From the IMG/VR virus record IMGVR_UViG_3300009424_000011, positions 32,805 through 96,804 of that record: a stretch of 64,000 nt of DNA; one strand, 5' to 3'. The DNA comes from a virus. Taxonomy: Duplodnaviria > Caudoviricetes. This document shows, piece after piece, positions 42,662 to 52,828 of the stretch; position 1 is the stretch's first letter; each line of letters begins with the position of its first letter. The notes under the pieces were generated by a model that was not told the DNA's origin, ran no database searches, and saw only the letters and a list, made by a program, of their open reading frames with translations. The position numbers were made by a program, and so were the translations under genes.

Positions 42662-42725
42662 ATGGTAAACGAAAATGGTTAACGTGTCAAGCGAGAATGT
42701 CGTTCACGCAGCCATAATGTCGGTG
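42662..42725 (-). promoter_or_regulatory. tail tube promoter with two upstream boxes and a TTAACCAT in the spacer
   Basis: CACCGACATT...GAACGACATT-CTCGC-TTGACA-CGTTAACCATTTTCGTT-TACCAT. Confidence 0.6.
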
Positions 42726-47958: not shown

Positions 47959-48190
47959 TGGAAATCCTCACCGAGGGTTCTGGAGATGAACGCGTCTCAC
48001 ATCGCGACCTCCGGACCCTCCAGAGGATTTCCAGAACAAGAAGGCTGACTGCCGGCGCACCGACGCGTTACTTCTTGTTCCGAACCTTGGGGGATTGGGT
48101 AGAGGCTCCCCCGGAGCCATGTTTGTGGGAAAATGGAAGAAGCGGTTGATCCGGACCCCGGTAAACGCTTTCAATTCCAATATGCCGACA

Positions 48191-48234
48191 AGGATACGAG
48201 ATTTTCCATGCACTGTCAAGCTAAAATGGCGGTG
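48191..48234 (-). promoter_or_regulatory. head operon promoter with upstream CACCGCCATT box
   Basis: CACCGCCATT-TTAGC-TTGACA-N17-TATCCT. Confidence 0.7.
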
Positions 48235-48248
48235 ATGGAATAAAAAAG

Positions 48249-48425
48249 TTACTTTTTTGCCTTCTTCCGTTTCTTCCTAGGTTTTGGAGGGCCTAGTTCT
48301 TCGGCTATGGCACGTTCAATATCATCCAAATCTTCCCCGTATGGGAACCCGGACTCTCCATCATCATCGAACAAAGAATTGAACTGGCCGCGATCCAAGT
48401 GGATGTCGTAGTCCGGGTTACTCAT
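48249..48425 (-). CDS. small protein, acidic N-terminus and basic C-terminus (58 aa, not in the ORF track)
   Basis: MSNPDYDIHLDRGQFNSLFDDDGESG...PPKPRKKRKKAKK. Confidence 0.55.
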   Translation of the reverse strand: MSNPDYDIHLDRGQFNSLFDDDGESGFPYGEDLDDIERAIAEELGPPKPRKKRKKAKK

Positions 48426-48428
48426 AGG

Positions 48429-50195
48429 TTACGCCTTTGGTGCCGGCTTTGGCGCTGGTGCCGGGGCGTCTTTTTGCATTGCTTGCTTTGCGGTCGCTGG
48501 GACAGGAGCGATCTTCGGCTGTTCCTTGGCAACCTTCTCGGCGGACTTGCGGGCCTGTTCGGCAATCGCTTCGTCCGATTCCAGTTCGCTGTCGAGGCGG
48601 CCGGTTTCGTTGTCGTCGAGATCGCGAGCCAGTTCGTCGGCGCGCTGGGTCCGGGCATCCGGGAACCCTTCCTTGCGGCTGGCGAAGTCCGGGTTGTTCG
48701 GGAACTGGGCCTGATCTTCCAGCATCTTGGTGAAGGTTTCCAGAGTCACATACTCCGGGATAACATCCGCCTTGAGGAAGTATTCATAGATGATCTCGAT
48801 GCCGATGAGCCCGGCCTGATACATCATCGTGATGGCGCGGAACTCACGGGCGGCGGCCTGATCGAGCAGGAAGTCTTGGTTGACGCGGAACTCCAGACCT
48901 TCTGAGCGCTCGTTCATCCAGTTACCGAGGATGATCAGAAGCTCAGTGAAGTTCTCGTTGAGGACCGTGGTGACGTTGAGGAGCAAGGATGCTTCGTTGC
49001 GATCCTTGAGCTTGACCTGATTGTCCGACTGGCCGGCGGTCGATGAGTCTCCCAGCAAACGCCCACCCAGCGAAGCGACTTGCGTCTCCTTCTGCTGCAA
49101 GGCATTCTCAAGGCTCTTCATACCAGAGCCGTTGAACTCGATGATACCAGCCTTCTCGCCGTTTCCGATTTCCCAGACGACCGAGGGGCCGATGTGGTAT
49201 TCGTCGTCTTCCTGTCCGCCCGACACATAGTAGACCGGGTTGGCAGTGTAGAAGCGGCCATGCTCAAGCTGAGCGTAGCTCTTGTAGTGCGAGAGGTTGA
49301 GGGTGAGGATGTCGAGGATCGGCGGTTTTTCGATGTCGCCGAGATTGGTCGTGGCATTGAAGAAGCGGAACGGGATGCGCTTCATTGGGACGCCGAATAC
49401 CATCGGGGTCGTGATGATCGGCTCTTCCGAAAGATCGGCATCGGCCGAACCACGGGCGTAGAGTTCCTGCCGGTATTCCCAGCGATTATCCATGTCGTTG
49501 TAGACCAGACGCAGGACGCGGTAGACAGTGAACAACTGCCCGTAGGTGGCATTCGGCACCACTTGATCGGCAACCATTTCGAAGAAGCGGCGATCGACGC
49601 TGAACTCTCGCAGGAGAATGTAGTCGAACTCGTCGCGTCCTTCGATCTCGGTCGTCGTCCAGTCCAAGATGTTCTCGCAGGTGTAGCCGGCGAGGTAAGG
49701 CTTGGCGGTCACGCTGTTGGCGTCATCAGTCTTGTCAACCAGAACGCCGTAGCGTCCGGTCGAAAGCATTTCCTGAGTGATGACCTTGGCGAACAGCTTG
49801 AGGGACAGACCGTCCTTGGAGATGCGCTTCGAAAGCTCACGGACCTTGGGACCAGCCTTCATCAGGCGCGGGTCACGCCGATAGATCGCACCGGTAAGGC
49901 CGGTGACGGTGCGGTAAACCATGTTGTAGAAAACAGCGCGATCGAGGTAGGCCGAATACTGGCTCTCGTCCATGCCTTCCGGCTGGGGTAGATATTCGGT
50001 GCCGTGCTTCTTGATCTCTACTTCACCGATCATGGCGTGACGGATCGCCAGCCAGATCAAGCGCCAGTTGGCATAGTCCCAGTTCGCGAAGAGCGGGACA
50101 TTCTCCATCATCTGCTGCTTCGACTGACGCGTAGCATAGAGCGCCTGTCGCTGAGCGAAGGTGCGGGCTTGCCGCTTTGTGATTTTATCAGCCAA
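48429..50195 (-). CDS. portal protein (DUF4055-type)
   Basis: YLP......Y..YL.RA.FYN...RT..GL.G, GRYGVLVD, IPF.F and PP.LD...LNL.HY..A motifs. Start uncertain (TTG 50195 or ATG about 50112). Confidence 0.88.
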   Translation of the reverse strand: MADKITKRQARTFAQRQALYATRQSKQQMMENVPLFANWDYANWRLIWLAIRHAMIGEVEIKKHGTEYLPQPEGMDESQYSAYLDRAVFYNMVYRTVTGLTGAIYRRDPRLMKAGPKVRELSKRISKDGLSLKLFAKVITQEMLSTGRYGVLVDKTDDANSVTAKPYLAGYTCENILDWTTTEIEGRDEFDYILLREFSVDRRFFEMVADQVVPNATYGQLFTVYRVLRLVYNDMDNRWEYRQELYARGSADADLSEEPIITTPMVFGVPMKRIPFRFFNATTNLGDIEKPPILDILTLNLSHYKSYAQLEHGRFYTANPVYYVSGGQEDDEYHIGPSVVWEIGNGEKAGIIEFNGSGMKSLENALQQKETQVASLGGRLLGDSSTAGQSDNQVKLKDRNEASLLLNVTTVLNENFTELLIILGNWMNERSEGLEFRVNQDFLLDQAAAREFRAITMMYQAGLIGIEIIYEYFLKADVIPEYVTLETFTKMLEDQAQFPNNPDFASRKEGFPDARTQRADELARDLDDNETGRLDSELESDEAIAEQARKSAEKVAKEQPKIAPVPATAKQAMQKDAPAPAPKPAPKA

Positions 50196-50558
50196 GGAGA
50201 AGAACTTCCGGGAAAAGGACCCTCTCGATCCGAGGAGCGAGGGGGCCAGTCTGGGAGGAGACAGGCCGATGACGGGGCCAACCGCCGGCCGAAGCCGGTA
50301 TCTGAAACAATCCCCGCGCTTCGAGCGGTCTTGTAAGACCTACCACGCGTGAGAAGGGGCTTACCCATCTGGCCCCACTGGAACCGGGCTCACCTACCAC
50401 ATCAAGCACTTCGGTAAATGACAGTCCGCCTTTTCGATCGCAGATTGGTCCGTCTCGGGGTTCGGTCCGACCAAGGACTTACTACCTCCAACTCGCCTCC
50501 CCGTGGTCTCGATCTTACAACGAGATGTCGCCTAGGCGCGTGATGCTACATTTGATTT
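50196..50558 (-). ncRNA. candidate large structured RNA / 5' leader upstream of the portal gene
   Basis: Own promoter, no convincing ORF, many hairpins including a cUUCGg loop, and two loop-mediated long-range complementarities. Confidence 0.45.
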
Positions 50559-50564
50559 GATGTA

Positions 50565-50608
50565 AACCTAACAGAATGTTCCACCACTGTCAAGTAATAA
50601 TGTCGGTG
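50565..50608 (-). promoter_or_regulatory. promoter upstream of the structured leader and portal
   Basis: CACCGACATT-ATTAC-TTGACA-N17-TAGGTT. Confidence 0.65.
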
Positions 50609-51114
50609 ATTCCGAAGCGGCGCTCCAACCGGTTCCATACATCCAGACGCTCCAGCACCGGGTTGCACCATTCAGTCAGGATGCAGTAGTTCCGGTTCTG
50701 GGGTGGTTTGTGGTGCCGGGCATGTGTTGGGATAGACTGGATGACACCAGTTTGTTGAATGACCTTGATCCAACCGGTGGACTTCTTGTGAGTCCAGTAG
50801 TGGACCTCGTTCTGCAACATCCCACCGGCGTAGGCAAACAGGAGAACAACAGACGGTCCGAACGCCAAGAGCCACAAACCGGCGGCTACACTGGCCGCCA
50901 CAAAGGTCGTCGAGTTGCGGTTGAAGAAACCATGAGCGGTGAACGCCAGCGGGTCAGCGTGGTGAACCCGGTTCGGGGCCCAGACTGACTTCTCCAGCCA
51001 ATCCCAGCGCGGCCGGGCAACCCTATCGAGATACCAATGAACAAAACCGCCCAGCAGATCAGCGATGATCCAGCCGACGACAGCTTGCCCGAGAAGGATG
51101 AAGAAGGTTTCCAT
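50590..51114 (-). CDS. CarF/TMEM189/FAD4-family membrane lipid desaturase
   Basis: ADLLGGFVHWYLD, RVHHADP, NEVHYWTH, THARHH and NYCILTEWCNPVLE histidine boxes; TM helices. Confidence 0.8.
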   Translation of the reverse strand: METFFILLGQAVVGWIIADLLGGFVHWYLDRVARPRWDWLEKSVWAPNRVHHADPLAFTAHGFFNRNSTTFVAASVAAGLWLLAFGPSVVLLFAYAGGMLQNEVHYWTHKKSTGWIKVIQQTGVIQSIPTHARHHKPPQNRNYCILTEWCNPVLERLDVWNRLERRFGITDIIT

Positions 51115-52006: not shown

Positions 52007-52828
52007 TTACTCCTCGTAGAGGCTCAGAACGTCATCGATCACCTCGTGACGCACAATGTCCTTGCGACCAAGACGCACGACGCCGATGCGGCTGTGACGC
52101 AGCCGGGGCGTCTCTTCGTCCTCATCACTCGCAACGATCGATCCGGGAATGGCCGCCTCGAAACGCGTCCGTGCTTCCTTTTCCTCGATCCGGCGGATCA
52201 CGTCGGCGAGACCCGACTGGCCGTGCGGTCGGTCGTGCTGTTCGATGTCGCCCGTGATGACCATCCGCGAGCCCGAGCCGATACGCGTCATCAGCATCTT
52301 CATCTGCTCGATCGTGCAGTTCTGGGCTTCGTCGGCGATCACGATCGCGTTCTTCAAGGTGCGGCCACGCATGATGGCAAGGGGAGCGATTTCGATCTCC
52401 TCGCGGTCCAGCATCTGCTCGACCTCATACTTGGTATAGAACTCCTTGAAGATGTCGAGGAGCGGGATGCACCATGGTGCCACCTTCTCCATCACGCCGC
52501 CCGGCAGAGTGCCAAGCTCTTCACCACCAGCACCGACCATGGGACGCGTGATGATGATCTTGGTGCAATCGCCTCGGCGGAACTTGATGATGGCATCGAG
52601 AACAGCGGCGTAGGTCTTACCGGTGCCGGCCGGGCCGACGGCGAAAAGAATGTCGTGGTGGTTCTGGGTAAGCTTGCGGATGTAACCTTTCTGACCGGGG
52701 GTCTGCGCTTTCAGGACTGGGACCGGCTTGGGCGGCTGCCGGCTGGCTGCGACCTTCTCGGCGACGTGAACAGGATCGGTGGGAAAGAAAATCTGCTTCT
52801 TCTTGTGGGCCACGGGTATTGGGTCCAA
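52007..52828 (-). CDS. phoH: PhoH-family ATPase
   Basis: GPAGTGKT, IIITRP, LGTLPG...EK..PW, MRGRTL, IADEAQN, TRIG and GDIEQHD. The start may be GTG at 52813. Confidence 0.92.
   Translation of the reverse strand: MDPIPVAHKKKQIFFPTDPVHVAEKVAASRQPPKPVPVLKAQTPGQKGYIRKLTQNHHDILFAVGPAGTGKTYAAVLDAIIKFRRGDCTKIIITRPMVGAGGEELGTLPGGVMEKVAPWCIPLLDIFKEFYTKYEVEQMLDREEIEIAPLAIMRGRTLKNAIVIADEAQNCTIEQMKMLMTRIGSGSRMVITGDIEQHDRPHGQSGLADVIRRIEEKEARTRFEAAIPGSIVASDEDEETPRLRHSRIGVVRLGRKDIVRHEVIDDVLSLYEE

Follow-up and report, generated by a model that had tools for sequence, protein, structure and literature searches.

What is encoded in the 394 nt that lie directly upstream of the portal gene of this phage? The window (the whole 64,000-nt stretch analysed here, taken from a record that is itself a 96.8-kb partial phage contig) has this arm's genes on the minus strand. 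The gap at 50196–50589, which runs from the TTG start codon of the portal gene at 50195 to the stop codon of a desaturase gene at 50590, is ORF-free. All features described below are on the minus strand unless marked otherwise. The original prediction saw here a long non-coding gap ahead of a portal gene and proposed that it encodes a folded non-coding RNA or a regulatory leader. The first part of that description is correct: the downstream gene (48429–50195, 588 aa) matches the phrog_145 portal family (E 2e-102) and the Pfam domain DUF4055. We looked for a translated ORF in the gap and found none conserved in relatives. The 73-aa and 86-aa reading frames that can be traced there gave no match in a family search, and neither their position nor their length is kept among relatives on either strand; a protein-coding explanation of the gap was rejected on these grounds.

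The closest records by portal identity are XM05 (90%), vB_EliS-L02 (72%), Lacusarx (68%) and RXM (59%), all of them large siphophages of 104–152 kb. Their full names give the hosts Erythrobacter (XM05), Sphingobium (Lacusarx) and Citromicrobium (RXM), and vB_EliS-L02 is an Erythrobacter phage. The window phage is a large Lacusarx/XM05-like siphophage of Sphingomonadales. None of these four GenBank relatives has an annotated feature in the gap, and the papers on Lacusarx and vB_EliS-L02 are silent about this region. The gap of XM05 aligns with that of the window over its full length at 80%.

Upstream of the gap lie a lipid-desaturase-domain gene (50590–51114; PF10520, E 9e-34), missing from this position in XM05, vB_EliS-L02 and Lacusarx, and a PhoH gene (52007–52828). 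Downstream of the portal gene come a 58-aa ORF, a scaffold gene and a major head gene. The 58-aa ORF (48249–48425) is directly 3' of the portal gene, corresponds in position to an annotated small hypothetical ORF in relatives, and is followed by an A/U hairpin and not by a GC terminator.

Distribution of the locus

Homologous loci were gathered by portal-guided scans of IMG/VR, metagenomes and GTDB genomes, which gave ∼17 distinct versions; a two-part DNA pattern scan of viral contigs was discarded as too unspecific, its matches being mostly due to chance. The ∼17 distinct relatives show the same promoter–RNA–terminator unit directly upstream of the portal gene, with an inferred RNA of ∼266–440 nt. 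Their alignment begins with an A/T-rich stretch and an invariant −35 element, followed by a variable 5' domain and a strongly conserved core; its 3' half leads from a hairpin that is variable or absent, through a short G-rich segment that is conserved and a CU-rich stretch that does not vary, to a GC hairpin with 4–5 U and the portal start. Every relative with a portal identity of at least 57% has a gap of 250–590 nt before the portal gene, and the gene upstream of the gap varies. There is one copy of the RNA per genome, seen solely beside the portal gene and never elsewhere.

One member of the clade that has the RNA, L227, is a whole 144-kb contig in the assembly of the isolate Sphingobium sp. 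MK2. A portal relative of 57% identity (L229; OZ245896.1, 263801–267886) lies within a 3.68-Mb record that bears the title of an Erythrobacter MAG chromosome, where it could be either a prophage or a mis-assembly.

The RXM-type phages, whose portals are 57–60% identical to that of the window phage, have neither the core nor the U-run. These phages (L004, 2186–2434; L142, L228 and L229) carry a different conserved portal leader, with a 9-bp long-range helix near the 5' end, a strong final hairpin whose loop contains a CU-rich motif, and no U-run.

Fold of the RNA and its conservation

A two-hairpin core of ∼97 nt was delineated by RNAalifold and by an explicit count of pairs over 11 sequences. 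Its first hairpin, P1 (50358–50394), consists of stacked helices (50394–92/50360–58, 50389–86/50366–63 and 50385–80/50376–71) with a 3' bulge, and shows covariation. The second, P2 (50311–50354), has a 9-bp lower stem with one bulge (50354–51 and 50349–45 with 50319–11), a near-invariant asymmetric internal loop of 4 nt on one side and 7 nt on the other, and an apical stem of 4 bp (50340–37/50330–27), the 50327–40 hairpin of the original prediction, closed by a variable loop. At most positions of the lower stem of P2 several standard pair types occur (up to six at one pair), and double changes are seen in eight of its nine pairs. On a plain MAFFT alignment 93% of the core's cells are paired, against 29–54% when the partners are slid by 1–3 columns, and the covariation score of the core was reached by none of 500 shuffles.

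We built a covariance model, R1, from 11 sequences, leaving out Lacusarx, L141, L144 and L227, whose P1 and lower P2 stems are entirely different. R1 nevertheless matched all four in full length (E 1e-8, 5e-5, 4e-6 and 2e-11, respectively). In a 16-sequence alignment fitted to R1, which leans towards the model, 22 of the 26 core pairs show double changes. The model found no match in 44 loci with portals at most 45% identical, in 151 sampled genomes from the order of the Erythrobacter MAG G001, or in the RXM-type loci. Our conclusion from this set of searches is that the RNA family is limited to one clade of Sphingomonadales phages and is tied to the portal gene.

The frequent G–U pairs in these helices (at one position, 14 of 16 sequences) would be A–C mismatches on the other strand, and thus the folded strand is the minus strand. 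Folding of the whole gap, compared with dinucleotide shuffles, gives z = 0.05 for the minus and −1.57 for the plus strand. Since this energy is at the shuffle level, thermodynamics alone gives no signal, and the support for the fold is comparative. A shuffle-level energy is also what favours reading the gap as a DNA-level element (a pac site, an origin or protein-binding sites) or as a neutral spacer with no RNA function. Such a reading is opposed by the strand-specific G–U pairs, the compensatory changes, the hairpin inserts of variable length and a conservation above that of synonymous sites, and we give it almost no credence. On the last point, identity over the 98-nt core is 98, 78 and 74% with three homologues (L005, L002 and L012), as against 74, 46 and 46% at those four-fold sites of the neighbouring portal gene where the residue is identical; by this comparison the core is under purifying selection beyond that acting on portal synonymous sites.

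The 5' domain is less uniform. Its 5' hairpin (50507–50525; 5 bp, 9-nt loop) stands directly ahead of an invariant 6-mer and is present in the closest relatives, but is not evident in L009 or in the homologues of group B, and L012 and L006 apparently have another 5-bp hairpin at the same site, judging by an alignment read by eye. RNAalifold applied to the 5' domain of seven sequences was weak overall, with one hairpin, P0 (50465–50478; stem 50478–75/50468–65), alone convincing. The 6-nt loop of P0 (50474–69) is identical in all 11 of the group A, group B and L019 sequences examined, while the stem varies from one relative to another. The same local hairpin is favoured, by RNAalifold and by single-sequence folds, over the nested helices originally drawn here (50423–27/50475–79 and 50445–50/50469–74).

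Several other elements of the original fold met with mixed fortunes. The minus strand does contain the hairpins at 50507–25, 50327–40, 50249–62 and 50285–98 and a repeated 8-mer. The proposed kissing loops are indeed complementary in the window, yet over 11 relatives only 47–70% of the cells are paired, a range that includes a 10-bp extension of the loop pairing, and in XM05 the second loop has changed with no compensation. Pairing of the CU-containing loop (50249–62) with a G-run at 50496–501 does no better (52% paired, no double change), and the GGGGC/GCCCC helix at 50356–76 shows no covariation, that G-run pairing instead with 50385–80 in P1. We also considered, and rejected, a long-range pairing of the 5' hairpin with P2, which occurs only in the closest relatives.

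The loop–loop pairing and the position beside the portal gene had suggested an analogy, and no more than that, with the pRNA of phi29; a reading in the same vein is a packaging or assembly RNA that works together with the portal. Both RNAs are phage-encoded structured RNAs with a conceptual link to the portal, and the portal-adjacent position and complex fold are all that favour the idea; apart from position, the analogy found no support. No pRNA model matches, the proposed loop pairs do not co-vary, so that no intermolecular loop pairing is conserved, the RXM-type relatives do without the core, and phages of this group encode TerS/TerL terminases (PMC9127768). The phage type differs as well, and here the RNA is the portal's own leader. 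A role in packaging or assembly of the phi29 pRNA kind seems to us very improbable.

Between the core and the terminator lie a peripheral hairpin, a pseudoknot and the CU-rich stretch. The hairpin, P3 (50285–50298; 5 bp with a UUCG loop), is variable: at its site relatives have a hairpin of 40 nt or 100 nt, and those of group B have none. The H-type pseudoknot (50264–50284; S1 50284–82/50275–73, S2 50279–76/50267–64), which like the terminator had not been part of the original prediction, has 97% of its cells paired in groups A and B, against 37–74% when slid, with double changes in four pairs. In Lacusarx, L141, L144, L227 and L019 its topology is kept with other, longer stems; the pseudoknots of the distant relatives end 0–2 nt before the CU stretch, and at most two of 300 shuffles were as good. 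The pseudoknot loops are semi-conserved. Compensatory changes above controls were found, then, in both the core and the pseudoknot of syntenic relatives, and such changes also support P0 and the variable hairpin.

The CU-rich, anti-Shine-Dalgarno-like stretch (50253–50262) is placed between the pseudoknot and the terminator. It is near-invariant in groups A and B, and its CU core is present in all relatives. The window has one exact copy, near-matches in it are rarer than chance, and it contains no extended complement; when 1804 candidate start regions in the phage contig were scanned for duplexes with it, there was no outlier target. In L227 a second CU-rich motif forms the 5' arm of that phage's own pseudoknot. 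In one homologue, L007, the 5' domain and the core are gone, and what is left beside its portal gene is the pseudoknot, the CU stretch and the terminator; this natural variant ties the 3' module to the portal gene in cis.

The RNA corresponds to no family in Rfam. At the gathering score, Rfam gave no family in the window or in 14 homologous loci, and at E ≤10 nothing relevant in the region, with two chance-level alignments only; the Burkholderia anti-hemB sRNA, which has the same loop motif, scored 15.8 bits against a gathering score of 49.5 (E 0.84). ARAGORN found no tRNA or tmRNA in the window or in the 14 loci, which together with the Rfam result led us to reject a tRNA or tmRNA identity, in agreement with the original prediction, which did not recognise it as tmRNA. 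Lacusarx does have a tmRNA, at 74819–75212, elsewhere in its genome. We conclude that the RNA family is without a match in Rfam, and that, on comparative grounds, the gap encodes a real and well supported multi-domain structured RNA, previously unannotated.

Predicted promoter, terminator and transcript

The promoter of the original prediction, with its 17-nt spacer, is present and is conserved in relatives. This predicted sigma-70-type promoter (50565–50593) has a consensus −35 element at 50593–50588, which overlaps the stop codon of the desaturase gene upstream, and a −10 element at 50570–50565. The −35 element, and an A/T-rich stretch ahead of it, are invariant and present, respectively, in 16 aligned relatives; as far as sequence can tell, its two hexamers, with a spacer inside the 16–18 nt range, and its conserved position mark it as of the sigma-70 type. 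A 10-nt box of the CACCG-A-CATT type (50599–50608) precedes the −35 element by ∼5 nt, within the 3' end of the desaturase ORF, and in the 96.8-kb contig such a box lies upstream of the −35 element in at least eight promoters, including that of the scaffold gene. Examples of this CACCG-A/C-CATT box are at 50599–50608, 48220–48233 and 42691–42704. In at least four other promoters (1328 on the plus strand; 29430, 25412 and 14202 on the minus strand) the box sits inside the −35/−10 spacer, and a single factor that turns one set of box positions on and the other off would fit this pattern.

At the other end lies a predicted intrinsic terminator (50213–50247), formed by an imperfect GC hairpin (50247–50217) and a U-run (50216–50213). 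In all 17 homologues 4–5 U immediately follow a GC-rich hairpin on the transcribed strand, though the stem sequences are unrelated; these are the features by which an intrinsic terminator is recognised in sequence; the 48 nt before the U-run fold with −19 to −27 kcal/mol. From the terminator to the portal start the distance is 13–35 nt in these homologues and 17 nt in the window. The RNA deduced from promoter and terminator would thus run from ∼7 nt after the −10 element to the U-run, ∼346 nt in all (50213–50558). The portal start region (50193–50209) has a weak Shine-Dalgarno-like GGAAG at 50209–05 and the TTG start at 50195–93; in relatives the start is an aligned TTG, ATG or GTG, with a weak GGA-type motif ahead of it.

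Three points concern portal transcription. First, 17 nt between U-run and start codon leave no room for a promoter, and by this anatomy the portal mRNA must come from read-through. Second, given that the scaffold gene has its own promoter of the same class (48219–48191), the portal gene and the 58-aa ORF make up a separate small unit. Third, we found no conserved antiterminator pairing: alternative partners differ between homologues, and the cost of blocking the 3' arm of the terminator is 9–25 kcal/mol. With no conserved competitor pairing the terminator looks constitutive, which predicts a discrete ∼345-nt RNA and a minor read-through product; with no RNA-only antiterminator, regulated read-through would need some further factor.

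The third point bears on a ligand-sensing riboswitch, in which the pseudoknot or the core would bind a metabolite and control the termination or translation of the portal message. In small pseudoknot riboswitches the pseudoknot directly precedes the terminator, as the H-type pseudoknot does here, and its loops are semi-conserved. No Rfam riboswitch matches, however, a conserved and mutually exclusive terminator/antiterminator switch is missing, and the metabolite logic for a portal gene is not obvious. We regard a riboswitch as unlikely to a considerable degree.

The absence of an RNA-only antiterminator is, on the other hand, what factor-dependent processive antitermination would lead one to expect, in the manner of lambda pR'–tR'/Q or of HK022 put: RNA polymerase would be modified by the core or by the pseudoknot, with or without the help of a phage protein, and would then get past the terminator at the appropriate moment. 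The late leader of lambda consists of pR', the 194-nt '6S' RNA and tR', with antitermination by Q. Shared with it are a constitutive promoter, a short terminated RNA, a terminator before late or structural genes and the requirement for read-through, and the window likewise has promoter, conserved RNA and terminator at the head of a structural-gene unit. The lambda leader, however, is not known to be a conserved fold in its sequence and is controlled at the level of DNA and promoter, whereas the present RNA is strongly conserved and structured, and no counterpart of Q was identified. The putL and putR RNAs of HK022 are ∼70-nt cis-acting antiterminators, close to the promoter, that make polymerase resistant to terminators. 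The ∼97-nt two-hairpin core recalls them, by description only, as a phage RNA of two stem-loops with conserved internal loops upstream of a terminator; in contrast to them it lies ∼160 nt from the start, and so is not promoter-proximal, within a 345-nt RNA that also has a pseudoknot and a CU stretch. Furthermore, the unit past the terminator comprises only the portal gene and the 58-aa ORF, the scaffold gene having its own promoter; transcripts arriving from upstream would carry the element too, so that the terminator would discriminate nothing; and no antiterminator protein was identified. We consider antitermination of this kind doubtful.

An aquifer metatranscriptome offers a weak hint of transcription. 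One 181-nt contig (from run X21, the source of this single short contig inside the RNA) matches 50344–50524 with one mismatch, and nothing matches the flanking genes within 1.2 kb. It is important to note that such contigs show neither ends, strand nor level, and that DNA carry-over is possible. The matches from runs X17, X18 and X22 are probably DNA or relatives.

A proposed leader for the portal message

The reading that we prefer, though we would put it at about an even chance, is that the RNA is the 5' leader of the portal transcription unit, with a constitutive terminator that frees a discrete RNA and throttles portal expression. Host RNA polymerase would start at the sigma-70-type promoter of the phage family and transcribe ∼345 nt, comprising the 5' domain, the two-hairpin core, the variable hairpin, the pseudoknot and the CU-rich stretch, before reaching the stand-alone terminator 17 nt ahead of the portal start codon. 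The majority of transcripts would stop there and accumulate as the discrete RNA, the read-through fraction being the sole source of portal mRNA; the weak ribosome-binding site and TTG start would then hold portal output low, leaving portal protein scarce relative to the scaffold and capsid proteins, which would be served by their own downstream promoter. The core and the pseudoknot would probably be bound by a protein, or by RNA polymerase, as a docking site that sets the level of read-through.

Some of this is observed: the anatomy is conserved, the RNA is folded, and there is no space for a second portal promoter. The transcript ends, the partial termination and the throttle we infer from that anatomy. 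Supporting the leader are the synteny with the portal gene despite a varying upstream gene, the conserved promoter of the scaffold class, the terminator hairpin and U-run 13–35 nt from the start in 17 of 17 homologues, the core covariation and recovery of left-out sequences by R1, the G–U pairs that fix the minus strand, core identity above that of four-fold sites, the single copy per genome, and L007, which keeps the 3' module beside the portal gene. The weak ribosome-binding motif and the start codon other than ATG are in keeping with a gene whose expression has to stay low, and the RNA probably limits the amount of portal protein. There are four difficulties. A plain attenuator needs no ∼300 nt of conserved structure; the sole RNA datum is the 181-nt contig, possibly carried-over DNA; no conserved antiterminator pairing was found; and the RXM-type relatives manage without core and U-run. 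Attenuation alone does not explain why core, pseudoknot and CU stretch are so strongly conserved, and the options that are still live for these parts are a bound factor that sets read-through and a role of the CU stretch in trans.

The second option leads to a trans-acting riboregulator, whose product would be the terminated ∼345-nt RNA and whose single-stranded CU stretch would pair with ribosome-binding sites on phage or host mRNAs and block their translation. No segment is more invariant than this stretch, and its CU core recurs even in the RXM-type leaders, within a hairpin loop; the apparently constitutive terminator and the promoter with its consensus −35 element would suit such a product, and the sole weak Rfam alignment, far under threshold (E 0.84), involves a Burkholderia sRNA that shares the loop motif. 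In Alphaproteobacteria, sRNAs with CCUCCUCCC motifs, anti-Shine-Dalgarno sRNAs such as cuckoo/CcsR and NfeR1/alpha-r14, are documented (PMC4615179, PMC8034643, PMC10746234). They resemble the present RNA in having a CUCCUCC-type motif, presumably unpaired, ahead of an intrinsic terminator, and their hosts belong to the same class. They are, however, 70–150 nt long, chromosomal and often beside DUF1127 genes, whereas the present RNA belongs to a phage, is far larger, stays with the portal gene and is matched by no Rfam sRNA family. Against action in trans, the RNA occurs nowhere but beside the portal gene, none of the 1804 start regions stood out as a target, the window has no second copy or extended complement of the motif, and a simple seed mechanism leaves the large core unaccounted for. 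We hold this to be possible but unlikely. It does not exclude the leader, adjacency to the portal gene then merely feeding read-through. A bolder form, to which we would attach similarly little weight, makes the terminated ∼345-nt RNA a new class of large phage ribonucleoprotein or riboregulator, either an anti-Shine-Dalgarno-like decoy that reprogrammes the translation of the infected cell or a partner in portal or procapsid assembly, with the portal gene riding on read-through.

To our knowledge, large structured phage RNAs are rare, and most are without known function. GOLLD and ROOL, both in Rfam, are likewise large, multi-helix and phage-borne, and belong to those without known function; the present RNA matches neither model, is smaller, and is confined to one phage clade and one genomic position. 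Two classical systems of dosage control in phages are the leader pseudoknot of T4 gene 32 and the autoregulation of the P22 scaffold. As with T4 gene 32, a pseudoknot followed by an unstructured stretch lies in the leader of a phage gene whose dosage is set, and the neighbouring scaffold leader is conserved too; here, in contrast, a terminator comes between the pseudoknot and the ribosome-binding site, and the portal protein is not known to bind RNA.

The earlier observation was thus borne out in part and its interpretation supported in part. The alternatives of folded non-coding RNA and regulatory leader both stand, on the strength of covariation in several helices, a conserved promoter and terminator, selection and the lack of a conserved ORF. 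With a clear transcription unit, a pseudoknotted fold backed by covariation and the cultured members XM05, vB_EliS-L02 and Lacusarx, the RNA is directly testable. If it gates portal synthesis, an RNA layer is added to the question of how the portal:scaffold:capsid ratio is set; if the terminated form works in trans, Alphaproteobacteria would have a regulator of translation that is carried by a phage.

Conservation in XM05, vB_EliS-L02, Lacusarx and RXM extends to the gap before the scaffold gene (47959–48219). This gap has a promoter of the portal type (−35 at 48219–48214), a GC hairpin near 48118–48104 and a 7-bp hairpin near 48027–48003 with compensatory changes. A further hairpin, at 47976–47966, buries the scaffold ribosome-binding site, and the element may be a translational operator.
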